Assembly (NCBI RefSeq): GCF_003018255.1 | Contig: NZ_CP027440.1 | Source: Escherichia coli | GTDB lineage: Bacteria; Pseudomonadota; Gammaproteobacteria; Enterobacterales; Enterobacteriaceae | Length of the DNA stretch: 64,000 bases | Reading direction: 5' to 3' (one strand) | Shown: positions 9,142-64,000 of the stretch, piece after piece | Layout: each line of letters opens with the position of its first letter | Numbering within the stretch: position 1 is the first letter of the stretch | The notes under the pieces: generated by a model | Databases searched by the model: none | What the model saw: the letters and a program-made list of their open reading frames with translations, nothing else | What the model was told of the DNA's origin: nothing | Translations under genes and position numbers: made by a program

Positions 9142-9285
9142 AGTGAGGGTAGAGCGGGGTTTCCCCCGCCCTGGTAGTCTTAGTAAGCTGGGTAGCTAAC
9201 GACTAAGAGCACCACGATGATGAGTATCTTCATCATGACCCTTTCCTTATTTAAGGCCCCTTCCTCGGGAGGGGCTTGCCCGTTT
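9142..9285 (+). ncRNA. Sib-family antitoxin sRNA, copy 4; ends approximate
   Basis: TTGACA (9109) and CATACT (9130). Antisense to the fourth ibs ORF. Hairpin GGCCCCTTCCTCGGGAGGGGCT is followed by TGCCCGTTT. Confidence 0.7.
9180..9236 (-). CDS. Ibs-family toxin peptide, copy 4: MMKILIIVVLLVVSYPAY
   Basis: Minus-strand translation gives 18 codons plus TAA. Confidence 0.78.
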   Translation of the reverse strand: MMKILIIVVLLVVSYPAY

Positions 9286-9443
9286 CAGCGTCCCGCTGAA
9301 ATCGTCGGCCTACCTCCTTTTGCCCTGAATGCAGTCTATCGCTAACGCGTAGATAAAATAGTTTCCTGTGTTATTACTGGATGGGTGCTCGCAAATGTGC
9401 CCGCCATTCAGACGATTCCCGATAGTGTTTCATAATTCCTCCA

Positions 9444-9461
9444 TTTTTCTCCCTGATTGGC
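9444..9461 (+). promoter_or_regulatory. BaeR-binding box upstream of mdtA
   Basis: TTTTTCTCCCTGATTGGC lies about 55 nt upstream of the mdtA ATG. It is nearly identical to the remembered BaeR consensus TTTTTCTCCATDATTGGC. Confidence 0.65.
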
Positions 9462-9514
9462 TGGCTACACTAGTATCATTCCGCGAATCGTTTCAGGAAG
9501 AGAAACTCTTAACG

Positions 9515-10762
9515 ATGAAAAGCAGTTATAAATCCCGTTGGGTAATGGTAATCGTGGTGGTTATCGCCGCCATCGCCGCATTCTGGTTCTGGCAAGGCCG
9601 CAATGACTCCCGGAGTGCAGCGCCAGGGGCGACGAAACAAGCGCAGCAATCGCCAGCGGGTGGTCGCCGTGGTATGCGTTCCGGCCCATTAGCCCCGGTT
9701 CAGGCGGCGACCGCCGTAGAACAGGCAGTTCCGCGTTACCTCACCGGGCTTGGCACCATTACCGCCGCTAATACTGTTACGGTGCGCAGCCGCGTGGACG
9801 GTCAACTGATGGCGTTGCATTTCCAGGAAGGCCAGCAGGTCAAAGCAGGCGATTTACTGGCAGAAATTGACCCCAGCCAGTTCAAAGTTGCATTAGCACA
9901 AGCCCAGGGCCAACTGGCAAAAGATAAAGCCACGCTTGCCAACGCCCGCCGTGACCTGGCGCGTTATCAACAACTGGTAAAAACCAATCTCGTATCTCGT
10001 CAGGAGCTGGATGCCCAACAGGCGCTGGTCAGTGAAACCGAAGGCACCATTAAGGCTGATGAAGCAAGCGTCGCCAGCGCGCAGCTGCAACTCGACTGGA
10101 GCCGCATCACCGCACCAGTCGATGGTCGCGTTGGTCTCAAGCAGGTTGATGTTGGTAACCAAATCTCCAGTGGTGATACCACCGGGATTGTGGTGATCAC
10201 CCAGACGCATCCTATCGATTTGCTCTTTACCCTGCCGGAAAGCGATATCGCTACCGTAGTGCAGGCGCAAAAAGCCGGAAAACCGCTGGTTGTTGAAGCC
10301 TGGGATCGCACCAATTCAAAGAAATTAAGTGAAGGCACGCTGTTAAGTCTCGATAACCAAATCGATGCCACTACCGGTACGATTAAAGTGAAAGCACGCT
10401 TCAATAATCAGGATGATGCGCTGTTTCCCAATCAGTTTGTTAACGCGCGCATGTTAGTCGACACAGAGCAAAACGCTGTGGTGATCCCAACAGCCGCCCT
10501 GCAAATGGGCAATGAAGGCCATTTTGTCTGGGTGCTGAATAGCGAAAACAAGGTCAGCAAACATCTGGTGACGCCGGGCATTCAGGACAGTCAGAAAGTG
10601 GTGATCCGCGCAGGTATTTCTGCGGGCGACCGCGTAGTGACAGACGGCATTGATCGCCTGACCGAAGGGGCGAAAGTGGAAGTAGTGGAAGCCCAGAGCG
10701 CCACCACTCCGGAAGAGAAAGCCACCAGCCGCGAATACGCGAAAAAAGGAGCACGCTCCTGA
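9515..10762 (+). CDS. mdtA: RND efflux membrane-fusion protein MdtA
   Basis: Track ORF 9368..10762. I place the conserved start at ATG 9515 ([26 protein letters not shown]), giving the 415-aa E. coli MdtA. The stop overlaps the mdtB ATG. Confidence 0.93.
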
Positions 10763-49923: not shown

Positions 49924-50024
49924 ATAAATTCCTAAATTTGTTTTCTTGCGATTTTGTCTCTCTCTAACCCGCATAAATACTGGTAGCATCTGCATTCAAC
50001 TGGATAAAATTACAGGGATGCAGA

Positions 50025-53000
50025 ATGAGACACTTTATCTATCAGGACGAAAAATCACATAAATTCTGGGCGGTGGAGCAGCAGGGAAACGAACTGCACA
50101 TCAACTGGGGTAAAGTCGGCACCAACGGACAAAGCCAGGTAAAAAGTTTTGCGGATGCAGCAGCGGCGGAAAAAGCGGGACTGAAGCTGATTGCAGAGAA
50201 GGTGAAGAAGGGGTATGTGGAGCAAGCGAAGGATAATTCTTTGCAACCTTCCCAAACGGTAACGGACTCTCTCAAGGTAGCTGACTTATCCACCATTATT
50301 CAGGAACAACCCTCTTTCGTAGCAGAAACCCGTGCGGCTGACAAAAATACAGATGCTGTTTTACCGTGGCTGGCGAAAGATATTGCTGTCGTTTTTCCGC
50401 CCGAAGTTGTACACACCACGTTAAGTCATCGCCGCTTTCCCGGAGTTCCTGTTCAGCAAGCAGACAAATTGACCCAATTACGTCGCTTAGCCTGTAGTGT
50501 GTCGCAACGGGATAATAAAACAGCCACATTTGACTTCAGCGCCTGTTCTTTAGAATGGCAAAACACCGTCGCCCAGGCGATCAGTCAGATCGACGGCCTG
50601 AAAACAACACAGCTACCATCACCCGTAATGGCTGTACTCACTGCACTTGAAATGAAATGCACAAGATATAAAGAGCGTGAGGATGTTATGGATCAGATTA
50701 TTCAGGAAGGCGGTCTGGAATATGCTACTGATGTAATAATACATCTTCAACAAATATCTATTGAATGGGATTATGTCAACAATAATATTGTTTTCCTGTC
50801 GTCTGGCATTTCACCTGATTACTTGCAGCAATATTCCAGCTTTGAATTACGCCTACGTAAACATTTATCACTGGCGGAAGAGTCTCTCTGGCAAAAATGT
50901 GCACAAAAACTTATTGCCGCAATTCCACATATTCCAGAATGGCGGCAACCATTAATTGCTTTGTTATTACCCGAAAAACCAGAAATTGCACATGAAATTT
51001 CCCAGCGTCTACTGGGGCAAAAGAAATTACCCTCGCTTGAGTGGCTAAAAATAGTGGCGACTGATGAGCACATTCTTGCCTCATTAGAAAAATATCACGA
51101 GCCATATGCCATTTTTGATGATTACTATTGTGGTGCGATATGGTCAGCCACCGTATTACAGGAGCAAGGTGTTACAGCCCTGCCCCGATTTGCTCCCTAT
51201 GCCGCAAGTGACTACTGCGCCGATGTGTTGCGTCATATCAATCATCCGTTCGCATTAACACTGCTTATACGTGTAGCCGGGCATACTAAACGCTGTCACG
51301 ATCGAATGACGAAAGCCTGCGCTGCGTTCCCACACGCAGCACTGGCAGCACTGGCGGAACTTCTAGTGCAAAAAGAAGAGAATAGTTGGCGCATTATGCT
51401 AATGACGATGCTTATCTCGCATCCGACACTAGCAGAACAGGTCATTCCCTGGCTTTCGACACCCGCAGTTGCAGTGCTGAAATCATGTCAGCAACAACTG
51501 ACACAGCCCTCAAACCATGCCAGCGCCGATCTACTGCCGGCCATAGTAGTCTCCCCACCATGGCTTTCGAAAAAGAAAAAATCGCCGATTCCGGTGCTGG
51601 ATTTAGCACCGCTCAACCTCGAATCCATATGCACAATAACCGACACAGAAGCTAAAGAGTTTCAAACTCATTGGGACTGGGAACCGCATAAGCCAAGTGA
51701 AGGTGCTAAAAATTTCCTTTACTCGCTGGGGTATCGCCGCTGGGATTTTGACACATATAAATATATCGGCGCTTCTGACTCGGCAATTGACGCATGGGAA
51801 CGTGAGGACTTCGCTACACTCATCCAAATGTTTAAAGCCCACCATGCACCGTATCAGGGGGAGTGGCATCTCAACTCACTTCCCTTTTTACCTATGCAAA
51901 AAGCGATTAAGCTATGGGAATTTCTCAGCAAAGAGCCGCATACCGCGATAAAACCAGTCATGCTTTATTTGCGACTGGCAGGTATGAGTGGTTTTCTACA
52001 CTCGTTTTCACGCTACCCTCAAGAAGGTTTTGCGGTTGCTAATTATTTTGCCGCAACGGAACTGGCTCCTGCCGTCGCCCGCGCCTTCAACAAACTCAAA
52101 ACATTACGACAAGACGCCAGTAGCTGGCTGCTGAAATACCCGGAACACGCCATTACCGGCCTGCTGCCTGCAGCGCTCGGCAAAGCCAGTGAAGCACAGG
52201 ACAACGCCCGTGCTGCCTTGCGTATGCTTACCGAAAACGGTCATCAGCCATTGCTGCAAGAAATCGCCCGGCGTTATAACCAGCCGGAAGTAACCGATGC
52301 GGTGAACGCTCTACTTGCGCTCGATGCCTTAGATAATCACCCGACAAAAATCCCCACTCTTCCGACCTTTTATCAGCCATCGCTCTGGACGCGCCCGTTA
52401 TTAAAAGCAAACGCCCAATCACTGCCTGATAGCGCACTCCTCCACCTCGGTGAAATGCTCCGCTTCCCTCAGGAAGAGGCACTGTATCCGGGATTATTGC
52501 AGGTGAAAGATGCCTGTACCACCGACTCACTGGCTGAATTTGCCTGGGATCTGTTTACCGCCTGGCAGACCGCTGGCGCGCCGTCGAAAGAGAGTTGGGC
52601 GTTCACTGCGTTAGGCGTTCTCGGTAACGATGACACCGCCCGCAAACTGACGCCTTTGATTCGCGCCTGGCCTGGTGAATCCCAGCATAAACGCGCCACC
52701 GTCGGGTTGGATATTCTCGCTGCTATCGGTAGTGATATCGCCCTGATGCAGCTTAACGGCATCGCCCAGAAACTGAAATTCAAAGCATTACAGGAGCGGG
52801 CAAAAGAAAAAATTGCCGACATTGCCGAGAGCCGCGAACTCACGGTGGCGGAGCTTGAAGATCGGTTAGCACCGGATCTCGGTCTGGATGATAATGGTTC
52901 GTTGTTGCTGGATTTCGGCCCACGCCAGTTCACCGTCAGCTTTGATGAAACCTTAAAACCGTTTGTGCGTGACGCTTCCGGCAGTCGTCTGAAAGACCTG

Positions 53001-53813
53001 CCCAAACCAAACAAAAGCGATGATGAATTACAGGCGAACAATGCTGTTAACCGCTACAAATTGCTGAAAAAAGATGCGCGTACCGTCGCCGCCCAGCAGG
53101 TAGCAAGGCTGGAATCCGCCATGTGCCTGCGTCGCCGCTGGTCACCGGAAAACTTTCAGCTCTTCCTGGTTGAGCATCCGCTGGTCCGCCACTTAACCCG
53201 CCGTCTGATTTGGGGCGTTTATAGCGCCGAAAACCAGCTACTGGCTTGCTTTCGCGTAGCGGAAGATAACAGCTACAGCACCGCTGACGATGATCTTTTC
53301 ACCCTGCCGGAAGGCGATATCTCTATTGGTATTCCTCACGTTCTGGAAATATCACCGACGGATGCTGCCGCCTTCGGGCAGCTTTTTGCCGACTACGAAC
53401 TGTTACCACCGTTCCGCCAGCTTGATCGTAACAGTTACGCGCTGACAGAAGCCGAGCGCAATGCCAGCGAACTGACACGCTGGGCAGGCAGAAAATGCCC
53501 GAGTGGTCGGGTAATGGGGCTGGCAAATAAAGGCTGGATGCGTGGTGAACCGCAGGACGGTGGCTGGATCGGCTGGATGATCAAACCTCTGGGCCGCTGG
53601 TCGTTAATCATGGAAATCGATGAAGGTTTTGCGGTCGGCATGTCGCCAGCCGAACTCAGTGCCGAGCAACTCTTAAGCAAGCTGTGGCTATGGGAAGGCA
53701 AAGCGGAAAGCTATGGCTGGGGGAGTAATTCAACACAGGAAGCGCAGTTCTCCGTACTCGATGCCATCACCGCCAGCGAGCTAATTAACGATATTGAAGC
53801 CCTGTTTGAATAA
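50025..53813 (+). CDS. yehH: WGR-domain / DUF4132-type giant protein YehH (intact MolR; remembered as a split pseudogene in K-12)
   Basis: Uninterrupted 1262-aa ORF. The N-terminal WGR-type motif is FWAVEQQGNELHINWGKVGTNGQSQVKSF...KLIAEKVKKGY. A long helical-repeat body follows, and the C-terminal region is shared with YehI (LDFGPRQFTVSFDE..., RLIWGVY). Confidence 0.88.
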   Translation: MRHFIYQDEKSHKFWAVEQQGNELHINWGKVGTNGQSQVKSFADAAAAEKAGLKLIAEKVKKGYVEQAKDNSLQPSQTVTDSLKVADLSTIIQEQPSFVAETRAADKNTDAVLPWLAKDIAVVFPPEVVHTTLSHRRFPGVPVQQADKLTQLRRLACSVSQRDNKTATFDFSACSLEWQNTVAQAISQIDGLKTTQLPSPVMAVLTALEMKCTRYKEREDVMDQIIQEGGLEYATDVIIHLQQISIEWDYVNNNIVFLSSGISPDYLQQYSSFELRLRKHLSLAEESLWQKCAQKLIAAIPHIPEWRQPLIALLLPEKPEIAHEISQRLLGQKKLPSLEWLKIVATDEHILASLEKYHEPYAIFDDYYCGAIWSATVLQEQGVTALPRFAPYAASDYCADVLRHINHPFALTLLIRVAGHTKRCHDRMTKACAAFPHAALAALAELLVQKEENSWRIMLMTMLISHPTLAEQVIPWLSTPAVAVLKSCQQQLTQPSNHASADLLPAIVVSPPWLSKKKKSPIPVLDLAPLNLESICTITDTEAKEFQTHWDWEPHKPSEGAKNFLYSLGYRRWDFDTYKYIGASDSAIDAWEREDFATLIQMFKAHHAPYQGEWHLNSLPFLPMQKAIKLWEFLSKEPHTAIKPVMLYLRLAGMSGFLHSFSRYPQEGFAVANYFAATELAPAVARAFNKLKTLRQDASSWLLKYPEHAITGLLPAALGKASEAQDNARAALRMLTENGHQPLLQEIARRYNQPEVTDAVNALLALDALDNHPTKIPTLPTFYQPSLWTRPLLKANAQSLPDSALLHLGEMLRFPQEEALYPGLLQVKDACTTDSLAEFAWDLFTAWQTAGAPSKESWAFTALGVLGNDDTARKLTPLIRAWPGESQHKRATVGLDILAAIGSDIALMQLNGIAQKLKFKALQERAKEKIADIAESRELTVAELEDRLAPDLGLDDNGSLLLDFGPRQFTVSFDETLKPFVRDASGSRLKDLPKPNKSDDELQANNAVNRYKLLKKDARTVAAQQVARLESAMCLRRRWSPENFQLFLVEHPLVRHLTRRLIWGVYSAENQLLACFRVAEDNSYSTADDDLFTLPEGDISIGIPHVLEISPTDAAAFGQLFADYELLPPFRQLDRNSYALTEAERNASELTRWAGRKCPSGRVMGLANKGWMRGEPQDGGWIGWMIKPLGRWSLIMEIDEGFAVGMSPAELSAEQLLSKLWLWEGKAESYGWGSNSTQEAQFSVLDAITASELINDIEALFE

Positions 53814-53822
53814 GGAAAGAGC

Positions 53823-56800
53823 ATGGACAAGGAATTACCGTGGCTGGCGGATAACGCCCAACTGGAACTGAAATATAAAAAAGGCAAAACACCACTCAGC
53901 CATCGCAATTGGCCAGGCGAACCGGTACCTGTTATCACTGAAAACATCATTCAGACACTGGGTGATGAATTGCTACAAAAAGCAGAGAAGAAAAAAAACA
54001 TTGTCTGGCGTTATGAAAACTTTTCACTGGAGTGGCAGTCCGCCATCACGCAGGCCATCAACTTGATCGGCGAACACAAACCCTCAATCACGGCCCGGAC
54101 AATGGCGGCGCTAGCCTGTATCGCGCAAAATGATAGCCAACAGTTGCTCGACGAAATCGTCCAACACGAGGGGCTGGAATATGCAACTGAGGTGGTGATT
54201 GCACGCCAGTTTATTGTACGGTGTTATGAGAGTGATCCTCTGGTAGTAACATTGCAATATCAGAACGAGGACTATGGCTATGGTTATCGCTCAGAAACCT
54301 ATAACGAATTCGATCTCCGATTGCGTAAGCATCTCTCTCTGGCAGAGGAAAGCTGCTGGCAGCGTTGCGCCGACAAACTCATTGCCGCACTGCCAGGAAT
54401 AACCAAAGTTCGCCGCCCTTTTATTGCGCTGAACCTCCCGGAAAAACCCGAAATCGCCAACGAGCTGGTAAGCCTTGAATGTTCGCAAACTCATTTTCGC
54501 TCAAAAGAGTGGTTAAAAGTTGTTGCTGATGACCCTAAGGCGGTGAAAGAACTCGCACGTTACTGGAGCCAGGATATATTTAGCGATCGAGAAGCCAGCT
54601 ACATGTCGCATGAAAACCACTTCGGCTACGCGGCCTGCGCTGCCCTTTTGCGCGAACAAGGACTGGCAGCCGTTCCGCGCCTCGCGATGTATGCACATAA
54701 AGAAGATTGCGGCAGTCTGCTGGTACAAATTAACCATCCGCAAGTCATCCGCACCTTGCTACTGGTGGCTGATAAAAACAAACCCAGCCTGCAACGTGTG
54801 GCTAAATACAGTAAAAACTTCCCCCATGCGACGCTCGCCGCACTGGCAGAACTGCTGGCGTTAAAAGCCCCCCCTGCGCGCCCTGGTTATCCCATCATCG
54901 AAGACCAAAAGCTGCCTGCACAGCAAAAAGCACGTGATGAATACTGGCATACGCTGTTACAAACGCTGATGGCATCGCAGCCACAACTGGCAGAAGAGGT
55001 GATGCCGTGGTTAAGTACTCAAGCCCGGGCAGTGCTGAATAGTTATTTATCGGCACCGCCCAAAACGGTTATTGATAGCACCGATAACAGCCAAATGCCT
55101 GAAATCCTCGTTTCACCACCGTGGCGTAGTAAGAAAAAAATGACAGCTCCACGTCTTGATTTGGCACCGCTCGAATTAACCCCGCAAGTTTACTGGCAAC
55201 CAGGCGAACAAGAGAGGCTTGCCTCCACTGAGTCTGCCCGTTATTTCAGCACGGAATCTCTTGCTGAACGCATGGAACAAAAAAGTGGACGAGTTGTATT
55301 ACAGGAACTGGGTTTTGGGGATGATGTATGGCTGTTTCTGAATTATATACTCCCCGGAAAACTGGATGCTGCACGCAATTCACTCATTGTTCAGTGGCAT
55401 TACTACCCAGGGCGGGTTGAAGAGATCATGAATGGCTGGAGCTCCCCGGAAGCTCAATTAGCAGAACAGGCGCTTCGCAGCGGTCACGTAGAAGTGTTAA
55501 TTAACATATGGGAAAATGACAGCTACTCACGTTATCGTCCGGAAAAGAGTGTCTGGAACCTGTATTTATTGGCACAGTTGCCGCGTGAGATGGCTTTGCC
55601 TTTCTGGCTACGTATCAATGAGAAAAAGCATCTGTCTGCGGGTGAGGACTATTTTCTCAGTATCTTCGGATTGGATGCTCTACCAGGTCTGCTGTTGGCT
55701 TTTTCACATCGTCCAAAAGAAACATTTCCGTTAATTTTAAATTTTGGCGCAACAGAACTGGCCCTGCCCGTTGCCCGCGTCTGGCGACGTTTCGCGGCGC
55801 AGCGTGATCTGGCCCGCCAGTGGATTTTACAATGGCCGGAACATACGGCTACTGCACTTATCCCTCTTGTCTTCACCAAACCCAGCGATAATAGCGAAGC
55901 TGCATTACTTGCCCTACGTTTACTTTACGAACAGGGACATGGTGAATTGCTGCAAACCGCGGCAAACCGCTGGCAGCGTACAGATGTATGGCCTGCCCTG
56001 GAGCATTTACTTAAACAGAGTCCAATAGAGATTTACCCGGCACGCATGCCAAAAGCCCCTGATTTCTGGCATCCGCTAATGTGGTCCAGGCCGCGCCTAA
56101 TCATTAATCATCAACTTATTACCGATGACGCTCTGGAAATTATCGGCGAAATGCTGCGCTTTACCCAGGGGGGACGTTTTCATAGCGGGCTGGAACAACT
56201 GAAAACGTTCTGCCAGCCGCAAACGCTGGCAGCTTTTGCCTGGGATCTCTTCACTGCGTGGCAACAAGCTGGTGCCCCCGCAAAAGACAACTGGGCATTT
56301 CTGGCGTTAAGTCTCTTTGGTGACGAAAGCACGGCACGGGATCTAACGACACAGATCCTCGCCTGGCCACAAGAAGGCAAATCTACCCGTGCTGTCAGTG
56401 GCCTGAACATCCTTACCCTGATGAATAATGATATGGCGCTGATACAGCTGCATCATATATCGCAACGGGCGAAATCCCGCCCCTTACGTGATAACGCGGC
56501 GGAATTTCTTCAGGTGGTCGCAGAAAATCGCGGGCTAAGCCAGGAAGAGTTAGCGGACAGATTAGTCCCAACACTGGGCCTTGATGATCCGCAGGCGTTG
56601 AGTTTTGATTTTGGTCCCCGGCAGTTTACCGTTCGCTTCGATGAAAACCTTAACCCGGTTATCTTTGATCAGCAAAACGTTCGCCAGAAAAGCGTTCCCC
56701 GGTTGCGCACCGATGACGATCAACTGAAAGCGCCCGAGGCACTGGCCCGATTAAAAGGGCTAAAAAAAGATACGACTCAGGTGAGCAAAAACCTGCTCCC

Positions 56801-57455
56801 CCGTCTTGAAGCTGCCCTGCGTACCACCCGACGCTGGTCGCTGGCAGATTTTCATTCTCTGTTTGTTAATCATCCCTTTACCCGTCTGGTTACCCAGCGA
56901 TTAATATGGGGCGTGTATCCGGCAAATGAACCGCGTCGTTTACTCAACGCCTTTCGTGTGGCCGCAGAGGGGGAGTTCTGCAATGCGCAAGATGAGCCCA
57001 TTGACCTGCCTGCGGATGCTCTGATTGGCATTGCCCACCCGTTAGAAATGACAGAAGGAATGCGCAGTGAATTTGCACAGCTTTTTGCCGATTACGAAAT
57101 TATGCCGCCTTTTCGCCAGTTGGCGCGGCGCACGGTGCTGCTCACACCTGACGAGTCAACCAGTAACAGCCTGACTCGCTGGGAAGGTAAATCCGCTACC
57201 GTTGGGCAGCTTATGGGAATGCGATACAAAGGCTGGGAGTCAGGCTATGAGGACGCATTTGTCTATGGCCTGGGCGAGTACCGGCTGGTCCTTAAGTTTT
57301 CACCCGGTTTTAACCACTACAATGTTGATAGCAAAGCGTTAATGAGCTTCCGTTCTCTTCGAGTGTACCGTGACAATAAATCCGTCACTTTTGCCGAACT
57401 TGATGTGTTTGATTTGAGTGAGGCGTTAAGCGCACCTGACGTCATTTTCCATTAA
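53823..57455 (+). CDS. yehI: DUF4132-type giant protein YehI (paralog of YehH without the WGR domain)
   Basis: 1210-aa ORF starting 9 nt after the yehH stop, with an AAGGAAAG SD. It aligns by eye to YehH from about residue 105 (LPWLA..., LRLRKHLSLAEES.W..CA.KLIAA.P, FDFGPRQFTVRFDE, RLIWGVY). Confidence 0.9.
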   Translation: MDKELPWLADNAQLELKYKKGKTPLSHRNWPGEPVPVITENIIQTLGDELLQKAEKKKNIVWRYENFSLEWQSAITQAINLIGEHKPSITARTMAALACIAQNDSQQLLDEIVQHEGLEYATEVVIARQFIVRCYESDPLVVTLQYQNEDYGYGYRSETYNEFDLRLRKHLSLAEESCWQRCADKLIAALPGITKVRRPFIALNLPEKPEIANELVSLECSQTHFRSKEWLKVVADDPKAVKELARYWSQDIFSDREASYMSHENHFGYAACAALLREQGLAAVPRLAMYAHKEDCGSLLVQINHPQVIRTLLLVADKNKPSLQRVAKYSKNFPHATLAALAELLALKAPPARPGYPIIEDQKLPAQQKARDEYWHTLLQTLMASQPQLAEEVMPWLSTQARAVLNSYLSAPPKTVIDSTDNSQMPEILVSPPWRSKKKMTAPRLDLAPLELTPQVYWQPGEQERLASTESARYFSTESLAERMEQKSGRVVLQELGFGDDVWLFLNYILPGKLDAARNSLIVQWHYYPGRVEEIMNGWSSPEAQLAEQALRSGHVEVLINIWENDSYSRYRPEKSVWNLYLLAQLPREMALPFWLRINEKKHLSAGEDYFLSIFGLDALPGLLLAFSHRPKETFPLILNFGATELALPVARVWRRFAAQRDLARQWILQWPEHTATALIPLVFTKPSDNSEAALLALRLLYEQGHGELLQTAANRWQRTDVWPALEHLLKQSPIEIYPARMPKAPDFWHPLMWSRPRLIINHQLITDDALEIIGEMLRFTQGGRFHSGLEQLKTFCQPQTLAAFAWDLFTAWQQAGAPAKDNWAFLALSLFGDESTARDLTTQILAWPQEGKSTRAVSGLNILTLMNNDMALIQLHHISQRAKSRPLRDNAAEFLQVVAENRGLSQEELADRLVPTLGLDDPQALSFDFGPRQFTVRFDENLNPVIFDQQNVRQKSVPRLRTDDDQLKAPEALARLKGLKKDTTQVSKNLLPRLEAALRTTRRWSLADFHSLFVNHPFTRLVTQRLIWGVYPANEPRRLLNAFRVAAEGEFCNAQDEPIDLPADALIGIAHPLEMTEGMRSEFAQLFADYEIMPPFRQLARRTVLLTPDESTSNSLTRWEGKSATVGQLMGMRYKGWESGYEDAFVYGLGEYRLVLKFSPGFNHYNVDSKALMSFRSLRVYRDNKSVTFAELDVFDLSEALSAPDVIFH

Positions 57456-57516
57456 AAACACAGCGGGCAGTGATGCAACTGCCCGTTATCAACACGACTT
57501 ACCAGCGGGGAAAGCG

Positions 57517-57870
57517 ATGATCGTGCAAAAAGAGCTGGTTGCTATTTACGATTATGAGGTCCCTGTACCTGAAGATCCGTTTTCCTTCAGACTTGAGATC
57601 CATAAATGCTCTGAATTATTTACAGGTTCCGTCTATCGACTGGAGCGATTCCGGCTACGTCCAACATTTCATCAACGTGATCGAGAAGATGCTGACCCGC
57701 TAATAAATGATGCGTTGATTTATATAAGAGATGAGTGTATTGATGAGCGGAAATTACGAGGTGAATCACCTGAAACTGTAATAGCAATTTTTAATCGTAA
57801 ACTACAGAATATATTCAACCAACTAATAGAATATTACTTTATTAAAGGGGGAAGCGGTTTTCCCCCTTAG
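57517..57870 (+). CDS. yehK: Small protein of unknown function YehK (3' end runs into the zor terminator hairpin)
   Basis: 117-aa ORF (MIVQKELVAIYDYEVPVPEDPF...). The last codons (IKGGSGFPP*) are encoded by the GGGGGAAGCGGTTTTCCCCC hairpin. Confidence 0.8.
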   Translation: MIVQKELVAIYDYEVPVPEDPFSFRLEIHKCSELFTGSVYRLERFRLRPTFHQRDREDADPLINDALIYIRDECIDERKLRGESPETVIAIFNRKLQNIFNQLIEYYFIKGGSGFPP

Positions 57871-57889
57871 TTGCGTTTCAATTTGCCCA

Positions 57890-57979
57890 TTACTTCAACA
57901 AATCAATCAACCGTAACAGAGCCACTAATAGCTCCAGTACAGCAATGAGCACGGTTAACTTTTGTGTCAGCGTGTCCAT
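57890..57979 (-). CDS. zorO: Zor-family type I toxin, 29 aa: MDTLTQKLTVLIAVLELLVALLRLIDLLK (copy 1; O/P assignment not determined)
   Basis: My own minus-strand translation, with an AAGGAG SD 5 nt upstream. The peptide matches ZorO of the zor-orz family (first described in O157:H7) as I recall it. A TATAAT (minus strand, 58166-58161) lies about 175 nt upstream, consistent with the long 5' UTR reported for zorO. Confidence 0.8.
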   Translation of the reverse strand: MDTLTQKLTVLIAVLELLVALLRLIDLLK

Positions 57980-58217
57980 CCGCTCTCCTTATTAAGGAGC
58001 GCAACACCAGCACCTTACCCTTACACTGCCTGTCGACACTGGTTTACGTTTGTTGAGTCGCCATGTTGCACTCCGGATCAGAGCACTACCTGCGGCACCA
58101 CCCGTCCGGTAGCCAGGACTTGAAATGGGTTCGATCCGGCGCAACTTCCCAACAGTCAGGATTATAAATCTCATTATCTTAATTGCAACACGGTCCAGCG
58201 GTGGTTATAATTCGTTC

Positions 58218-58297
58218 GTTGAGATGCCATGTTGCACTATCAGTAACTTAACATCAAAGTAGTAAATAAAAGAACCTGCCTCACCAGCAGGTTCTTT
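58218..58297 (+). ncRNA. orzO: Orz-family antitoxin sRNA, copy 1 (ends approximate)
   Basis: TTGCAA (58183-58188), a 17-nt spacer and TATAAT (58206-58211). The 5' segment GTTGAGATGCCATGTTGCACT is complementary to the zor 5' UTR at 58052-58072. Terminator AGAACCTGCCTCACCAGCAGGTTCT plus TTTTATTTT. Confidence 0.72.
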
Positions 58298-58497
58298 TAT
58301 TTTCTGCGATCTACTTTCCAGATATTTTTCGCCAATAGCCCACCATAAATATTCACATCCCGGCCAAATAGTACGTTGATTATAAAATCGATGAATTTAT
58401 AAATAAAAATGAGTTATATGATGAATTAATAAAAACAGTAATCATTTTATTAAAGGGGGAAACGGTATTCCCCCTTAGATGCGTTTCAATTTGCCCG

Positions 58498-58587
58498 TTA
58501 CTTCAACAAATCAATCAACCGTAACAGAGCCACTAATAGCTCCAGTACAGCAATGAGCACGGTTAACTTTTGTGTCAGCGTGTCCAT
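58498..58587 (-). CDS. zorP: Zor-family type I toxin, 29 aa, identical peptide (copy 2)
   Basis: The 90-nt ORF is identical to copy 1, with the same SD and the same promoter arrangement (minus-strand TATAAT at 58774-58769). Confidence 0.8.
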   Translation of the reverse strand: MDTLTQKLTVLIAVLELLVALLRLIDLLK

Positions 58588-58825
58588 CCGCTCTCCTTAT
58601 TAAGGAGCGCAACACCAGCACCTTACCCTTACACTGCCTGTCGATACTGGTTTACGTATGTTGGTACGAAACGTTGCTCTCCGGATCAGGGCACCGCCTG
58701 CGGCACCACCCGTCCAGCAGCCAGGACTTAAAATTGGTCCGATCCGGCACAACCTCCCAACGGGCAGGATTATAAATCTCATTCACTGAATTGCAATGGA
58801 GTGTGGATATGGTTATAATTTATTC

Positions 58826-58908
58826 GTTGGTACGAAATGTTGCACAATCAGCAAGTTAGCGTCATTGTAGTAAATAAAAGAACCTGCCTCACCAGCAGGT
58901 TTTTTTAT
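58826..58908 (+). ncRNA. orzP: Orz-family antitoxin sRNA, copy 2 (ends approximate)
   Basis: TTGCAA (58791-58796), a 17-nt spacer and TATAAT (58814-58819). The 5' segment GTTGGTACGAAATGTTGCACA is complementary to the zor 5' UTR at 58660-58680. Terminator AGAACCTGCCTCACCAGCAGGTT plus TTTTTTATTT. Confidence 0.72.
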
Positions 58909-59017
58909 TTACTGTGATCTGCTTTCCAGATATTTTTCGCTCAAACAACTAATGCGGCAAACATTTATTGCGCGTAAAATATCGTTTATTTCATTAATAC
59001 ATTTCAGGGATGAATAT

Positions 59018-60106
59018 ATGTCACCGCAGAATAATCATCTGCAGCGTCCGCCTGCCGCTGTGTTATACGCCGATGAACTGGCAAAATTAAAACAAAATGA
59101 TCACGCACCTTGCCCGCCCGGTTGGCAGTTAAGTTTGCCTGCGGCCCGCGCTTTTATCCTTGGCGATAGCGCGCAAAATATTAGCCGTAAAGTCGTGATC
59201 AGTCCCTCCGCTGTCGAACGCATGTTAGTCACTCTCGCTACCGGGCGCGGTTTGATGTTGGTGGGGGAACCTGGCACCGCAAAATCGCTCCTGTCTGAAT
59301 TACTGGCAACCGCTATTAGCGGCGATGCCGGGTTAACCATCCAGGGCGGCGCATCTACCACCGAAGATCAAATCAAGTACGGCTGGAACTACGCCCTGCT
59401 TATCAACCATGGTCCGTCAACGGAAGCGCTGGTCCCTGCCCCGCTTTACCAGGGAATGCGCGACGGCAAAATTGTCCGTTTTGAAGAGATAACGCGTACA
59501 CCGCTGGAAGTACAAGACTGTCTGTTAGGTATGCTTTCTGACAGGGTAATGACGGTGCCGGAACTCACCGGTGAAGCCAGTCAGCTCTATGCGCGAGAAG
59601 GCTTTAATATTATTGCCACTGCCAATACCCGCGATCGCGGCGTCAATGAGATGAGTGCCGCGCTAAAGCGTCGCTTCGATTTTGAAACCGTCTTTCCGAT
59701 TATGGATTTCGCCCAGGAGCTGGAACTGGTCGCCAGTGCTTCGGCGCGTTTGCTGGCCCATAGCGGTATTCCGCATAAAGTGCCTGACGCGGTACTGGAG
59801 TTACTGGTCCGCACCTTCCGCGATCTGCGTGCCAACGGCGAAAAGAAAACGTCAATGGATACCCTGACGGCAATTATGTCCACCGCTGAAGCCGTGAACG
59901 TGGCCCACGCAGTGGGCGTCCGCGCCTGGTTTTTAGCGAATCGCGCAGGTGAGCCAGCCGATCTGGTGGACTGTATTGCCGGAACCATCGTCAAAGATAA
60001 CGAAGAAGATCGCGCTCGTCTGCGCCGTTACTTCGAACAGCGAGTCGCCACACATAAAGAAGCTCACTGGCAGGCTTATTATCAAGCTCGCCACCGCCTG
60101 CCGTGA
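59018..60106 (+). CDS. yehL: MoxR-class AAA+ ATPase YehL (AAA_5-type)
   Basis: Track ORF 58952..60106. The start is ATG 59018 (MSPQNNHLQRPPAAV), giving 362 aa. Walker A GEPGTAKS, Walker B-like IVRFEEITR, sensor-1 IIATANTRD, and an arginine region SAALKRRFDF. Confidence 0.9.
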   Translation: MSPQNNHLQRPPAAVLYADELAKLKQNDHAPCPPGWQLSLPAARAFILGDSAQNISRKVVISPSAVERMLVTLATGRGLMLVGEPGTAKSLLSELLATAISGDAGLTIQGGASTTEDQIKYGWNYALLINHGPSTEALVPAPLYQGMRDGKIVRFEEITRTPLEVQDCLLGMLSDRVMTVPELTGEASQLYAREGFNIIATANTRDRGVNEMSAALKRRFDFETVFPIMDFAQELELVASASARLLAHSGIPHKVPDAVLELLVRTFRDLRANGEKKTSMDTLTAIMSTAEAVNVAHAVGVRAWFLANRAGEPADLVDCIAGTIVKDNEEDRARLRRYFEQRVATHKEAHWQAYYQARHRLP

Positions 60107-60116
60107 GGAAAGATGC

Positions 60117-62396
60117 ATGAGCGAGCCGTTAATTGTCGGCATCCGGCATCATAGTCCGGCCTGCGCCCGGCTGGTGAAATCGTTAATCGAAAGCCAGCGG
60201 CCACGATACGTGTTGATTGAAGGCCCGGCTGATTTTAATGACCGGGTAGACGAACTGTTTTTAGCCCACCAGCTTCCGGTAGCTATTTACAGTTATTGCC
60301 AGTATCAGGACGGTGCAGCCCCCGGGCGTGGTGCCTGGACGCCATATGCTGAATTTTCGCCGGAGTGGCAGGCGCTACAAGCCGCTCGTCGTATTCAGGC
60401 ACAAACTTACTTCATCGATTTGCCTTGCTGGGCGCAGAGTGAAGAAGAGGACGATTCGCCTGATACGCAAGAGGAAAGCCAGACCTTGCTGCTGCGTGCC
60501 ACCCGCATGGATAACAGCGACACCCTGTGGGATCACTTGTTCGAAGATGAAAGCCAGCAAACTGCATTACCCTCTGCACTGGCGCACTATTTTGCACAAC
60601 TGCGGGGCGATTCCCCCGGAGATGCTCTCAATCGTCAGCGCGAAGACTTTATGGCCCGCTGGATTGGTTGGGCGATGCAGCAAAACAATGGCGACGTGTT
60701 AGTCGTCTGCGGTGGCTGGCACGCTTCTGCACTGGCAAAAATGTGGCGCGAATGCCCGCAGGAAATTAACACGCCGGAATTGCCCTCGCTGGCAGATGCC
60801 GTTACAGGTTGTTATCTCACCCCCTACAGTGAAAAGCGCCTTGATGTGCTGGCAGGATACCTTTCCGGTATGCCTGCCCCGGTCTGGCAAAACTGGTGCT
60901 GGCGGTGGGGCTTGCAGCAGGCAGGTGAACAACTGCTGAAAACGGTTCTTACCCGTTTGCGCCAGCACCACTTGCCTGCTTCAACAGCGGATATGGCTGC
61001 CGCTCATCTGCATGCGATGGCACTGGCACAGTTGCGTGGTCATACACTACCGTTACGCACTGACTGGCTGGATGCCATAGCAGGCTCGCTGATTAAAGAA
61101 GCCCTGAATGCGCCGTTGCCGTGGAGCTATCGCGGCGTTATTCATCCCGATACCGATCCGATTCTGCTAACGTTGATAGACACATTAGCGGGTGACGGAT
61201 TCGGTAAACTTGCCCCCTCTACGCCACAGCCGCCTCTGCCAAAAGATGTCACCTGCGAACTGGAACGTACAGGAATCTCTTTTCCGGCGGAGCTTACTTT
61301 AAATCGCTTTACCCCCGATGGACTGGCGCAAAGTCAGGTGTTACATCGGCTGGTAATACTGGAGATCCCAGGGGTTGTGCGCCAGCAGGGAAGTACACTG
61401 ACACTTGCAGGCAACGGTGAAGAACGCTGGAAATTAACCCGCCCGCTTAGCCAACATGCGGCATTAATTGAGGCCGCCTGCTTTGGTGCCACACTCCAGG
61501 AAGCCGCACGCAATAAATTAGAAGCCGATATGCTGGACGCGGGTGGAATCGGCAGTATCACCACATGTCTTAGCCAGGCGGCGTTAGCGGGTCTGGCGTC
61601 CTTCAATCAACAATTACTGGAGCAACTCACATTATTAATCGCCCAGGAAAATCAGTTTGCCGAAATGGGCCAGGCGCTGGAAGTGCTATATGCCTTATGG
61701 CGGCTGGATGAAATTAGCGGTATGCAGGGCGCGCAGATATTACAAACGACATTATGCGCGGCCATCGATCGCACGCTGTGGCTATGTGAATCCAACGGCA
61801 GACCGGATGAAAAGGAGTTTCACGCTCACCTGCATAGCTGGCAAGCGCTTTGCCATATCCTGCGCGATCTACATAGCGGCGTTAATTTACCCGGCGTTTC
61901 TCTTTCTGCGGCGGTAGCCTTACTGGAGCGACGCAGTCAGGCGATTCATGCCCCGGCGCTGGATCGCGGCGCGGCACTTGGCGCACTGATGCGTCTGGAA
62001 CATCCCAACGCCAGTGCCGAAGCGGCGCTGACAATGCTGGTGCAATTATCCCCGACACAATCCGGCGAGGCGCTGCACGGTTTGCTGGCATTAGCCCGTC
62101 ATCAACTGGCCTGTCAGCCGGTATTTATCGCCGGTTTCAGCAGTCATTTAAATCAACTGAGTGATGCCGATTTTATCAATGCCCTGCCCGATTTACGCGC
62201 GGCGATGGCCTGGCTACCACCACGAGAACGCGGGACGCTGGCGCATCAGGTGCTTGAGCATTATCAACTGGTGCAACTTCCCGTTTCGGCACTGCAAATG
62301 CCGTTGCATTGTCCACCACAAGACATTGCACATCATCAACAACTCGAACAGCAGGCACTGGCATCGCTGCAACACTGGGGAGTTTTCCATGTCTGA
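60117..62396 (+). CDS. yehM: Large protein of unknown function YehM
   Basis: Track ORF 59949..62396. The start is ATG 60117, which is 10 nt after the yehL stop and preceded by a GAGGAAAG SD (MSEPLIVGIRHHSPACARLV...). This gives 759 aa. The body is mostly Leu/Ala-rich and helical. Confidence 0.88.
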   Translation: MSEPLIVGIRHHSPACARLVKSLIESQRPRYVLIEGPADFNDRVDELFLAHQLPVAIYSYCQYQDGAAPGRGAWTPYAEFSPEWQALQAARRIQAQTYFIDLPCWAQSEEEDDSPDTQEESQTLLLRATRMDNSDTLWDHLFEDESQQTALPSALAHYFAQLRGDSPGDALNRQREDFMARWIGWAMQQNNGDVLVVCGGWHASALAKMWRECPQEINTPELPSLADAVTGCYLTPYSEKRLDVLAGYLSGMPAPVWQNWCWRWGLQQAGEQLLKTVLTRLRQHHLPASTADMAAAHLHAMALAQLRGHTLPLRTDWLDAIAGSLIKEALNAPLPWSYRGVIHPDTDPILLTLIDTLAGDGFGKLAPSTPQPPLPKDVTCELERTGISFPAELTLNRFTPDGLAQSQVLHRLVILEIPGVVRQQGSTLTLAGNGEERWKLTRPLSQHAALIEAACFGATLQEAARNKLEADMLDAGGIGSITTCLSQAALAGLASFNQQLLEQLTLLIAQENQFAEMGQALEVLYALWRLDEISGMQGAQILQTTLCAAIDRTLWLCESNGRPDEKEFHAHLHSWQALCHILRDLHSGVNLPGVSLSAAVALLERRSQAIHAPALDRGAALGALMRLEHPNASAEAALTMLVQLSPTQSGEALHGLLALARHQLACQPVFIAGFSSHLNQLSDADFINALPDLRAAMAWLPPRERGTLAHQVLEHYQLVQLPVSALQMPLHCPPQDIAHHQQLEQQALASLQHWGVFHV

Positions 62397-63525
62397 ACTG
62401 AACGATCTTCTGACCACCCGTGAGCTACAACGCTGGCGATTAATTCTTGGCGAAGCGGCAGAAACGACGCTTTGTGGGCTGGATGACAACGCCCGGCAGA
62501 TAGACCACGCGATGGAGTGGCTGTATGGGCACGATCCTGAACGGTTCCAGCGTGGTGAACGCTCCGGTGGATTAGGTTGCTCAAATCTCACCCCCCCTGA
62601 GTGGATCAACAGTATTCACACGCTGTTTCCGCAACAGGTGATTGAACGGCTGGAAAGCGATGCCGTACTGCGCTACGGCATTGAAGATGTGGTGACGAAT
62701 CTCGACGTGCTGGAACGTATGCAACCGTCTGAAAGCCTGCTACGCGCCGTTTTGCACACCAAACATCTGATGAATCCCGAAGTACTGGCTGCCGCCCGCC
62801 GGATAGTACGCCAGGTTGTTGAAGAAATTATGGCTCGACTGGCAAAGGAAGTTCGTCAGGCTTTTTCTGGTGTCCGCGATCGCCGCCGTCGCTCATTTAT
62901 TCCACTGGCGCGTAATTTCGATTTCAAAAGTACGCTGCGTGCCAACCTGCAACACTGGCATCCGCAACACGGCAAGTTGTATATCGAATCCCCCCGCTTT
63001 AACAGCCGCATTAAGCGCCATAGCGATCAATGGCAACTGGTCTTACTGGTTGATCAAAGCGGATCGATGGTTGACTCGGTGATCCACTCAGCGGTGATGG
63101 CGGCCTGTTTATGGCAGTTACCCGGCATTCGTACCCATCTGGTGGCGTTTGACACCAGCGTGGTTGATCTCACGGCAGACGTTGCCGATCCGGTAGAGTT
63201 ATTAATGAAAGTACAACTGGGCGGCGGGACCAATATCGCCAGTGCCGTGGAGTATGGTCGGCAACTTATTGAACAACCTGCAAAAAGTGTCATTATCCTC
63301 GTGAGCGATTTCTATGAAGGTGGTTCATCATCATTGCTGACGCATCAGGTGAAAAAGTGTGTCCAGAGCGGCATCAAAGTGCTGGGACTGGCGGCGCTCG
63401 ATAGCACCGCAACACCTTGCTATGACCGCGATATGGCCCAGGCACTGGTTAATGTCGGTGCACAAATAGCCGCCATGACGCCGGGCGAACTGGCGACCTG
63501 GCTTGCGGAGAATCTTCAGTCATGA
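62389..63525 (+). CDS. yehP: von Willebrand factor A (MIDAS) protein YehP
   Basis: Track ORF 62161..63525. The start is ATG 62389, overlapping the yehM stop (ATGTCTGA), giving 378 aa. MIDAS residues: LLVDQSGSM, GGGTNIASA, ILVSDFYEGG. Confidence 0.9.
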   Translation: MSELNDLLTTRELQRWRLILGEAAETTLCGLDDNARQIDHAMEWLYGHDPERFQRGERSGGLGCSNLTPPEWINSIHTLFPQQVIERLESDAVLRYGIEDVVTNLDVLERMQPSESLLRAVLHTKHLMNPEVLAAARRIVRQVVEEIMARLAKEVRQAFSGVRDRRRRSFIPLARNFDFKSTLRANLQHWHPQHGKLYIESPRFNSRIKRHSDQWQLVLLVDQSGSMVDSVIHSAVMAACLWQLPGIRTHLVAFDTSVVDLTADVADPVELLMKVQLGGGTNIASAVEYGRQLIEQPAKSVIILVSDFYEGGSSSLLTHQVKKCVQSGIKVLGLAALDSTATPCYDRDMAQALVNVGAQIAAMTPGELATWLAENLQS

Positions 63526-64000
63526 ATTCACTACGTCCGGAATTATTAGAACTGACACCACAGGCACTGACGGCGTTAAGCAATGCCGGTTTTGTTAAGC
63601 GCAGCCTTAAAGAACTGGAAAATGGCAACGTCCCGGAAATCAGTCATGAGAACGGCGCTTTAATCGCCACCTTCAGTGACGGTGTCCGCACCCAGCTGGC
63701 GAACGGCCAGGCACTGAAAGAGGCTCAGTGCAGCTGCGGGGCCAGCGGCATGTGCCGCCATCGCGTGATGCTGGTTTTAAGTTATCAGCGACTTTGCGCC
63801 ACCACCCAGCCTACGGAAAAAGAAGAAGAGTGGGATCCGGCAATCTGGCTGGAAGAACTGGCTACCCTGCCCGATGCCACCCGCAAACGCGCACAGGCGC
63901 TGGTCGCTAAAGGCATCACCATTGAGTTGTTCTGTACGCCGGGCGAAATTCCCTCTGCCCGCTTACCGATGAGCGATGTACGTTTTTATTCCCGCAGCAG
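63522..64000 (+). CDS. yehQ: SWIM zinc-finger protein YehQ, N-terminal 159 codons (continues past the window end)
   Basis: The ATG at 63522 overlaps the yehP stop (ATGA). My translation is MNSLRPELLELTPQALTALSNAGFVKRSLKELENG... with SWIM CxC-x7-CxH (CSCGASGMCRH, nt 63729-63761). The frame stays open to nt 64000. It is absent from the ORF track because no stop lies inside the window. Confidence 0.85.
   Translation, partial: MNSLRPELLELTPQALTALSNAGFVKRSLKELENGNVPEISHENGALIATFSDGVRTQLANGQALKEAQCSCGASGMCRHRVMLVLSYQRLCATTQPTEKEEEWDPAIWLEELATLPDATRKRAQALVAKGITIELFCTPGEIPSARLPMSDVRFYSRS

Follow-up and report, generated by a model that had tools for sequence, protein, structure and literature searches.

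Gene content of the yehLMPQ locus

The yehL, yehM, yehP and yehQ genes of Escherichia coli, named as in annotated records, are located at the 3′ end of a 64,000 nt stretch of contig NZ_CP027440.1 (assembly GCF_003018255.1), referred to below as the window. They encode a MoxR-class AAA+ ATPase, a DUF5682 protein, a protein with a von Willebrand factor A (vWA) domain of the CoxE type and a SWIM protein, respectively (Table 1). The window stops within yehQ, and the full gene (667 aa) was read from locus L001 (15123-17126). The 57.4-64.0 kb stretch was matched in 5376/5426 complete E. coli genomes, in which the operon has a fixed chromosomal position between metG and btsSR, and a single place covering at least 80% of this query, with the operon intact, was present in 5181/5426. 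E. coli has only two MoxR ATPases, RavA, which has been studied in depth, and YehL. We found no functional treatment of yehLMPQ in the literature searched, nor any mention of DUF5682.

Table 1. Positions of genes, motifs, gene junctions and sites at the yehLMPQ locus (window numbering), and of a second type of locus in other bacteria (locus numbering)
Feature	Position	Strand	Description
yehL	59018-60106	+	362 aa; Pfam AAA_5, E 1.6e-34; MoxR-class AAA+ ATPase, YehL subfamily
yehM	60117-62396	+	759 aa; Pfam DUF5682, E 4e-95
yehP	62389-63525	+	378 aa; Pfam VWA_CoxE, E 1.4e-71, residues 151-372
yehQ, 5′ part	63522-64000 (window end)	+	first 159/667 codons; Pfam SWIM
YehL Walker A, GEPGTAKS	59264-59287	+	residues 83-90; G83, P85, G86 and K89 invariant
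YehL atypical Walker B, VRFEE	59474-59488	+	residues 153-157; R154, E156 and E157 invariant in the subfamily
YehL ATANTRD	59615-59635	+	residues 200-206; T201, N203 and D206 invariant
YehL RRFDF	59669-59683	+	residues 218-222; R218 and R219 invariant
YehM N-terminal alpha/beta domain	60117-60881	+	residues ~1-255; predicted TIKI/TraB/ChaN/erythromycin-esterase-like fold
YehM C-terminal alpha-solenoid	61449-62393	+	residues ~445-759; poorly conserved
YehP RWRLxLG motif	62431-62451	+	residues 15-21, in N-terminal helical region; invariant, conserved like the MIDAS (71 homologues)
YehP MIDAS	63052-63066; 63229-63231; 63307-63309	+	D222-Q-S224-G-S226; T281; D307
YehP frameshift-prone site	63247-63262	+	GTGGAGTATGGTCGGC; exact copy of published site; none expected by chance
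YehQ SWIM finger	63729-63761	+	C70-S-C72-x5-C78-R-H80; 22.4 bits (Pfam cut-off 19.6)
yehL/yehM junction	60104-60119	+	TGA 60104-60106, 10-nt spacer GGAAAGATGC, yehM ATG from 60117; no overlap
yehM/yehP junction	62389-62396	+	8-nt overlap ATGTCTGA
yehP/yehQ junction	63522-63525	+	yehQ ATG 63522-63524, yehP TGA 63523-63525; 4-nt overlap ATGA
LexA-box-like site	49998-50017	+	AACTGGATAAAATTACAGGG; CTGG-N8-ACAG, one core mismatch to CTGT-N8-ACAG; 8 nt 5′ of molR ATG
molR	50025-53813	+	intact, 1262 aa; Pfam WGR E 4.7e-18, DUF4132 E 8.4e-52
yehI	53823-57455	+	1210 aa; Pfam DUF4132 E 1.1e-46 at C-terminus, no WGR
yehK	57517-57870		117 aa; no Pfam, NCBIfam or PADLOC match
Second-type loci	L075:4793-9868; L077:4624-9651; L063:5184-10013; L071:5178-10007; L078:5499-9593		DUF4132-only protein and long ORF 5′ of a YehL-like gene

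A conserved E-E Walker B motif in the YehL ATPase

YehL matched the AAA_5 family with 119 bits (cut-off 22), and a scan of NCBIfam returned only sub-threshold matches to GvpN and MadB. Translation of the exact coordinates recovered all four motifs named in the initial annotation, namely the Walker A motif, VRFEE, ATANTRD and RRFDF. The Walker B motif reads IVRFEE, unlike the canonical hhhhDE. In AAA+ ATPases, the position of ATANTRD is that of sensor 1, and the position of the arginine pair in RRFDF is that of the Arg finger; the invariant N203, R218/R219 and R271 of YehL were assigned as sensor 1, Arg finger and sensor 2 by position in this way. The closest relatives of YehL with a solved structure, as judged by sequence, were six midasin AAA domains (E 3e-10, HMMER). 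In this alignment the YehL F-E-E is placed opposite the midasin Walker B L-D-E, and E156 therefore occupies the position of the Walker B aspartate.

The sequence R-F-E-E was present in 107/107 close homologues spanning the motif (at least 73% identical; Enterobacterales, Burkholderiales, Xanthomonadales and Neisseriales), and YehL is 74-77% identical to its beta-proteobacterial and Xanthomonadales orthologues. An exhaustive search of 1.84 billion cluster representatives gave 193 clusters at E≤1e-30 for YehL, and R-h-E-E was found in 41/44 full-length representatives, down to 36% identity, with the other three showing D-E, E-A and a garbled motif, respectively. Residues K89, R154, E156, E157, R160, N203, R218/R219 and R271 were invariant in a 26-sequence alignment. 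The E-E Walker B reported for this single protein is thus family-wide, and since it is conserved across the subfamily, these alignments identify it as a signature of a compact YehL subfamily, a trait and not a mark of decay. Since the other catalytic residues are all in place, YehL is more likely to be an active enzyme that coordinates Mg2+ differently than an inactive one. The YehL subfamily was named in 2006, as cited in PMC3893208.

YehM, YehP and YehQ accompany YehL across phyla

The gene content of related loci was compared using the best 80 YehL-type loci, one per species and with 10-kb flanks, together with three loci from exact-protein look-ups. These were annotated using profiles built iteratively from the E. 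coli proteins (HMMER alignments), and gene-content counts refer to the 72 YehL-type loci with at least 7 kb of sequence 3′ of the ATPase gene. YehM, YehP and YehQ were encoded in one collinear block with YehL in 65/72 loci, which gives 65/72 with a vWA gene; in E. coli this gene is yehP, two genes 3′ of yehL. In 57/72 loci there were also one to four DUF4132 proteins of the MolR/YehI type, mostly encoded directly 5′ of the ATPase. The loci came from about ten phyla, comprising Pseudomonadota (alpha, beta and gamma), Actinomycetota, Myxococcota, Bacillota, Planctomycetota, Verrucomicrobiota, Cyanobacteriota/Obscuribacterales, Spirochaetota, Bacteroidota and Armatimonadota. Independently computed Pfam labels for Lysobacter and Variovorax gave the same series of WGR-DUF4132, AAA_5, DUF5682, VWA_CoxE and SWIM. 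A SWIM protein was encoded in all 65 complete clusters, as a YehQ homologue, and also in both examined loci of the type of the Deinococcus ddrTUVWX operon discussed below.

The proposal that YehM and YehQ belong to the same unit as the ATPase and the vWA protein was borne out by this comparison, in which yehM and yehQ were not often missing. The more elaborate machine that had been suggested on this basis would have conserved extra partners, but its count of four components left out the DUF4132 proteins, represented in E. coli by MolR and YehI. Because the latter are adjacent in 57/72 loci, the module as defined by gene content has five parts rather than four, with the DUF4132 protein as a fifth and variable partner. 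On the same basis its invariant core consists of YehL, YehM and YehP; a SWIM protein was part of each complete cluster that we examined, and the large helical partner can be exchanged.

The spacing of the genes was also conserved. The initial annotation described all junctions in the operon as overlapping and translationally coupled, which holds for yehM/yehP and for yehP/yehQ, where yehQ starts within the yehP stop codon, but not for yehL and yehM, which are separated by a spacer; a Shine-Dalgarno-like AGGAAAG spans the yehL stop codon. In the locus collection, yehM overlapped yehP in 39/58 loci and yehP overlapped yehQ in 46/66 (median -4 nt for both), and the median spacing was 13 nt from yehL to yehM (76 loci) and 29 nt from the DUF4132 gene to yehL. 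Such overlaps indicate coupled translation only, and the fixed stoichiometry that had been read from them does not follow. YehM and YehP are joined in a single protein of ~1200 aa in Kitasatospora, Bradymonadales, Anaeromyxobacteraceae, a second Streptomyces type, Sandaracinus and Pirellulaceae (loci L025, L045, L070, L075, L077, L079, L080, L081, L084, L063 and L078). Gene fusion is a classical sign of physical association, and this is taken as an indication that YehM and YehP may interact.

Domains of YehM, YehP and YehQ

The YehP VWA_CoxE domain (240.9 bits, cut-off 26.4) contains a complete metal ion-dependent adhesion site (MIDAS) in the C-terminal half of the protein, as initially annotated, and the conservation of each MIDAS residue was at least 97% among 71 homologues drawn from many phyla. 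The N-terminal region, for which no motif had been recognised, does have one, RWRLxLG (Table 1). The yehP coding sequence also contains a frameshift-prone site, for which +1 frameshifting at codon 291 was supported by reporter and mass-spectrometry evidence; the product is a 303 aa protein lacking the last 75 residues, including the MIDAS residue D307 (PMC2790909).

The SWIM finger of YehQ was confirmed at residues 70-80; it did not vary among 19 diverse orthologues, and in a set of 69 its conservation was at least 95%. A second CxCx5CxH motif is present at residues 167-177, just beyond the end of the window, and is invariant in Enterobacterales and present in most but not all other orthologues. 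In rare YehQ alleles within E. coli, stretches of 23-62 residues are duplicated or deleted in frame in the helical region at residues ~175-330 (clusters P0243-P0302), and in one allele the sequence RASVDAFHA is repeated four times. The K-12 YehQ is 614 aa long and ends ~53 residues before the C-terminus of the common 666/667-aa form. Sequence searches of the PDB gave no match for YehM, YehP or YehQ, nor did a PDB search with a diverse YehQ profile, and no NCBIfam family was found for any of the three proteins.

YehM was modelled with AlphaFold2 using 30 sequences (predicted local distance difference test 83.8, predicted template modelling score 0.78), giving an N-terminal alpha/beta domain and a C-terminal alpha-solenoid. 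Nearly all of the residues with at least 95% conservation in 85 homologues are positioned in the N-terminal domain, namely R10, H11, H12, E35, E83, D101, E143, R163, R175, E176, G199 and H202, directly after predicted strands, which suggests a catalytic or ligand-binding pocket in the modelled structure. The TIKI superfamily includes ChaN, HopBA1, PMT and the erythromycin esterases, the active members of which have a site of two histidines and two glutamates at strand ends (PMC6254334). Candidates for such a set in YehM would be H11, H12 and H202 with E35, E83, E143 and E176. The predicted YehM domain may resemble this superfamily (TIKI, TraB/PrgY, ChaN, Ere, HopBA1, RRSP/PMT) weakly and at the level of the fold only, and would differ in being fused to a 500-residue helical region.

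Relation to the Deinococcus ddrTUVWX operon and a possible link to DNA damage

The strongest lead towards a function comes from a similar set of genes described in Deinococcus deserti, where ddrTUVWX is a five-gene operon including Deide_18730 (SWIM), Deide_18710 (MoxR-like) and Deide_18690 (vWA, CoxE-like) (PMC4007540, PMC5552922, PMC6300522). The operon is induced more than 5- to 10-fold by radiation in an IrrE/DdrO-dependent manner and is preceded by a radiation/desiccation response motif (RDRM) (PMC5552922, PMC4007540). A tblastn search of plasmids with YehL detected a locus on a Deinococcus taeanensis plasmid (L086), which was identified as ddrTUVWX by an additional 78-aa gene that separates ddrV from ddrW, as described in PMC9510100. 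DdrV and YehL share 41% identity, the Walker B of DdrV being RLEE, and DdrV, DdrW and DdrX matched the YehL, YehM and YehP profiles with E values of 1e-120, 1e-140 and 6e-108, respectively. DdrW belongs to DUF5682, DdrX is a VWA_CoxE protein with RWRLLLG and DQSGS motifs, DdrT is a SWIM protein of 466 aa and DdrU belongs to DUF5691. The two operons thus share a SWIM protein, a YehL-subfamily ATPase with R-h-E-E, a DUF5682 protein and a CoxE-type vWA protein with RWRLxLG and DxSxS, and they differ in gene order, which is permuted in Deinococcus to SWIM, DUF5691, ATPase, DUF5682 and vWA. The 17-mer TTACGCCAGAAACATAA is located ~10-25 nt 5′ of the D. taeanensis ddrT start (L086:6027-6043), and would fit the palindromic RDRM pattern TTMYGYNNNNNRCRKAA. 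E. coli is not known to have a DdrO/RDRM system, nor is yehLMPQ known to be regulated in this way.

The same tblastn search detected plasmid-borne copies in Iodobacter, Agrobacterium, Sinorhizobium, Streptomyces, Bacillus mycoides, Methylosinus, Rhizobium and Deinococcus. The ddr arrangement is also found on the Methylosinus plasmid, and the Rhizobium plasmids pair the ATPase with a DUF5691 gene.

In E. coli, the LexA-box-like site AACTGGATAAAATTACAGGG directly precedes molR, and is probably the published molR box. No equivalent site was found 5′ of the Klebsiella molR orthologue (L005). A published list includes molR as LexA-regulated with a known SOS box (PMC6590174), and in D. radiodurans the genes for a DUF4132 protein (DRA0166) and a WGR protein (DR2173) rise upon depletion of DdrO (bioRxiv 10.1101/2021.07.07.451423). 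A connection with DNA damage is thus on record in Deinococcus for the complete operon and in E. coli for a single partner, molR; for the module at large this link is thin and may not be general.

MolR, YehI and the region upstream of yehL

MolR consists of a WGR domain, central PBS-type HEAT repeats and a C-terminal DUF4132 domain. The central repeats match alphaRep in the PDB (E 1.5e-8, profile A4); no solved relative was found there for the DUF4132 domain itself, as the protein profile matched only the HEAT/alphaRep repeats in the middle. YehI is a MolR paralogue with 40% identity. In K-12 MG1655, molR is broken into yehF and the yehH pseudogene, and it is intact in the window. The components differ in their conservation, with ~75% identity between E. 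coli and Variovorax for YehL and ~46% for YehM, and ~15-40% across diverse loci for YehQ and the DUF4132 proteins.

Downstream of yehI, the yehK gene was considered as a component of the module and rejected, as no homologue was found in the 83 loci; it appears to be a lineage-specific insertion. The 3′ end of yehK runs into a toxin-antitoxin repeat, formed by a 608-bp tandem duplication between yehK and yehL (57833-58940), which contains two identical 29-aa open reading frames (ORFs) on the minus strand (MDTLTQKLTVLIAVLELLVALLRLIDLLK; 57890-57979 and 58498-58587). These ORFs match the z3289/z3290 type I toxin genes with antisense small RNAs (sRNAs) of E. coli O157:H7 (PMC2887945). Due to the duplication, the gap between yehK and yehL is 1.15 kb in the window versus 0.3 kb in K-12. 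The z3289/z3290 type I loci are known as zor-orz. A GC-rich hairpin followed by a T-run (GAACCTGCCTCACCAGCAGGTTTTTTTATT, ~58880-58909, plus strand) is located ~110 nt 5′ of the yehL ATG, and has the appearance of an intrinsic terminator, which might serve the antitoxin sRNA. Should it act as one, transcription of yehL would have to start from a separate promoter within the remaining 110 nt.

Orphan ATPases and a second type of locus

Three loci (L047, L071 and L056) had only DUF4132 and ATPase genes or only yehL and yehM. Orphan YehL-type ATPases with ~50% identity and no YehM, YehP or YehQ were found in four loci (L040, L049, L058 and L062). The orphan gene follows a kaiC gene in a Synechococcales genome (L040:8359-11071), and in Alishewanella it follows a gene for a methyltransferase-fused ATPase of the MshE/T2SSE type, as checked with Pfam (L049/L058, ~7731-11071); the Alkalimonas locus of this pair is similar by ORF layout alone. 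The orphan gene of Brachyspira (L062) stands alone.

Loci of a second type were observed in Streptomyces, Sandaracinus, a further genome of Myxococcota (L071) and Pirellulaceae, in which a DUF4132-only protein of ~290 aa and then an ORF of 1360-1690 aa without a Pfam match are encoded directly 5′ of the YehL-like gene. Except in L071, these are followed by the YehM-YehP fusion and a YehQ lacking the first ~100 residues. In L071, unrelated genes, for a glucose-6-phosphate dehydrogenase and a dehydratase, lie 3′ of the ATPase gene.

Comparison with characterised MoxR-vWA systems and proposed mechanism

Like RavA-ViaA, CbbQ-CbbO, NorQ-NorD, CoxD-CoxE and the Mg- and Co-chelatases, the Yeh module pairs an AAA_5-type ATPase with a vWA protein in which the MIDAS is complete, and ATP would be expected to drive the remodelling of a client that is held via the MIDAS (PMC3893208). 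YehP belongs to the CoxE vWA family. The Yeh module differs from them in the E-E rather than D-E of the ATPase, in its two further obligatory partners (DUF5682 and SWIM) and the DUF4132 protein, and in that no client enzyme is encoded nearby. The view that characterised pairs consist of only two partners, on which the suggestion of a more elaborate machine had partly relied, was too simple, as Mg- and Co-chelatases have three partners. Moreover, ternary vWA-MoxR-VMAP systems have been described and are regarded as conflict systems (PMC10910872); these are similar to the Yeh module in combining ATPase and vWA protein with additional conserved partners, whereas the Yeh module has no VMAP-type partner or effector domains of that class. 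The AAA_5 ring, long helical region and MIDAS domain of midasin/Rea1 have their likeness in YehL, the YehM solenoid and YehP, but midasin is one chain of 4700-4900 aa with six AAA domains that acts on the pre-60S particle, and the Yeh elements are separate bacterial proteins. This resemblance is architectural and does not in itself speak for a shared function.

We propose that a multi-subunit remodelling machine of the MoxR-vWA type is encoded by yehLMPQ and its relatives in other bacteria, and assign to this a probability of about 0.6. By analogy with the MoxR-vWA pairs and midasin, YehL would form an ATP-hydrolysing ring with a glutamate in the place of the Walker B aspartate, and YehP would dock on this ring with its MIDAS metal site gripping an acidic residue of the client protein. 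YehM would be physically joined to YehP and supply a helical scaffold and possibly an active site of the hydrolase type, and the fast-evolving SWIM and DUF4132/WGR proteins may be clients, sensors or targeting subunits. Our best guess at the function, a tentative one, is a role in stress or DNA damage.

The analysis shows the gene content, motifs, conservation, collinearity and fusions of the module and its homology to ddrVWX, whereas the assembly of a complex, the activities of YehL as an ATPase and of YehM as a hydrolase, and a role of damage in E. coli are inferred. Several observations weigh against this proposal or parts of it. One or more of YehM, YehP and YehQ were missing from 7/72 loci, and in K-12 molR is disrupted and YehQ is shortened at its C-terminus, and the full set is thus dispensable in the laboratory. 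Expression of yehL and yehM was increased in hns/stpA mutants, indicating that both are repressed by H-NS/StpA (PMC3686432). In the window, yehL is parted from molR-yehI by yehK, the type I toxin-antitoxin repeat and the terminator-like hairpin, and no LexA-like site was found before yehL (57081-60024), the E. coli box being that in front of molR. A search of the 270 nt 5′ of the first gene, using CTGT-N8-ACAG for gamma- and beta-proteobacteria, GTTC-N7-GTTC or GAAC-N7-GAAC for alpha-proteobacteria and GAAC-N4-GTTC for Actinomycetota and Bacillota, gave no LexA core in 48 clusters from these groups, nor was a core with one mismatch found in 13 gamma/beta loci including Klebsiella; SOS regulation of the module everywhere was rejected on these grounds. 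The match with ddrTUVWX is also incomplete, since the large helical partner is of the DUF5691 family in Deinococcus and DUF4132 in E. coli, the SWIM protein is ~470 aa versus 667 aa for YehQ, and the MolR and YehQ profiles detected neither DdrU nor DdrT. For the YehM N-terminal domain, a Foldseek search of the PDB returned mainly alpha-solenoids and no hit at E≤0.001, scanning 30 YehM members with Pfam showed no membership of TraB_PrgY_gumN, Cofac_haem_bdg or Erythro_esteras (best Erythro_esteras E 0.16, in 1/30), and hhalign gave a probability of 0.2% for a match with the E. coli TraB-family protein YbaP.

Alternative explanations

The module could instead be an anti-phage or conflict system of the NTP-dependent MoxR-vWA type, in which the SWIM and DUF4132/WGR proteins would sense an invader or the damage it causes, and the ATPase-vWA pair would activate a peptidase-like effector in the YehM N-terminal domain. 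The extreme conservation of the ATPase next to fast-evolving YehQ and DUF4132 proteins, the one to four tandem DUF4132 paralogues and the rare in-frame insertion and deletion alleles of YehQ within E. coli would all fit such a role, as would the patchy distribution with plasmid copies, of which that of Methylosinus adjoins toxin-antitoxin and insertion sequence (IS) elements, and the H-NS silencing that is typical of acquired DNA. The precedent of the vWA-MoxR ternary systems, regarded as conflict systems (PMC10910872), points the same way, and induction by DNA damage is also compatible with the sensing of prophage induction. However, a PADLOC 2.0 scan of seven proteins gave no match, the bpMoxR family of Pfam was matched with 18.6 bits, under its 27-bit cut-off, and the module encodes no recognisable toxic effector (nuclease, TIR or pore). 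Its fixed position between metG and btsSR in 5376/5426 E. coli genomes is atypical of variable defence islands, and no phage phenotype was found in the literature searched. We therefore consider this explanation unlikely.

A function in maturation or cofactor insertion, comparable to CoxD/CoxE, NorQ/NorD, CbbQ/CbbO, RavA/ViaA and the chelatases and with the DUF4132 or SWIM proteins as the matured enzyme or complex, is suggested by the CoxE-type vWA domain of YehP, by the weak similarity of YehL to GvpN and other CGN-type ATPases, and by the MoxR proteins studied so far, which serve in the maturation of specific complexes (PMC3893208). MolR was formerly called molybdate metabolism regulator, which would hint at metal handling, but molybdate-metabolism genes were unresponsive alongside the Deinococcus DUF4132/WGR genes (bioRxiv 10.1101/2021.07.07.451423). 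The flanks of the 72 loci vary and hold no conserved metalloenzyme, transporter or cofactor-biosynthesis neighbour, and in place of enzymes the partners are large helical, WGR and SWIM proteins. We consider such a chaperone less likely still. Finally, the genes could be mere neighbours in the remnant of a horizontally acquired island, with E-E marking a decaying and inactive ATPase. The H-NS silencing of the locus in E. coli, the broken molR and shortened yehQ of K-12 and the lack of a function in the literature searched could be read in this way, but this is hardly credible given the 74-77% identity of YehL between E. coli and Burkholderiales/Xanthomonadales with every catalytic residue invariant, both glutamates included, the collinear block kept in 65/72 loci from about ten phyla, the conserved 4-nt overlaps, the YehM-YehP fusions, and the operon being intact in 5181/5426 E. 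coli genomes.

Implications for the YehL family

The genes, their domains, the YehL subfamily and ddrTUVWX as an operon were already known. In the literature searched, we did not find it stated that the E-E Walker B is subfamily-wide or that the module has five parts with YehM-YehP fusions, nor did we find the predicted TIKI-like N-terminal domain of YehM or the proposed equation of yehLMPQ with ddrVWX and ddrT. Within the remodelling machine that we favour, a more specific version can be envisaged, although we regard it as quite doubtful. This would be a stress machine spanning phyla, in which the E-E ring, together with the MIDAS adaptor, hands over SWIM and WGR/DUF4132 (or DUF5691) proteins, as candidate sensors of DNA lesions or nucleic acids, to a TIKI-type hydrolase domain of YehM, for ATP-gated proteolytic or esterolytic processing of damage sensors. 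If true, bacteria would have their own form of midasin-like remodelling, linked to signalling, and this would give one function to a core E. coli operon and the radiation-induced ddrTUVWX operon.

An E-for-D Walker B would also inform AAA+ enzymology, if it supports hydrolysis. Together with molR and yehI, yehLMPQ occupies ~14 kb of the core genome in E. coli. The analysis assembles these y-genes into a defined system and provides candidate residues (E156/E157 of YehL, the MIDAS of YehP, the His/Glu set of YehM and the SWIM cysteines of YehQ), and points to DNA damage, relief of H-NS repression and phage challenge as the conditions in which its role may become apparent.

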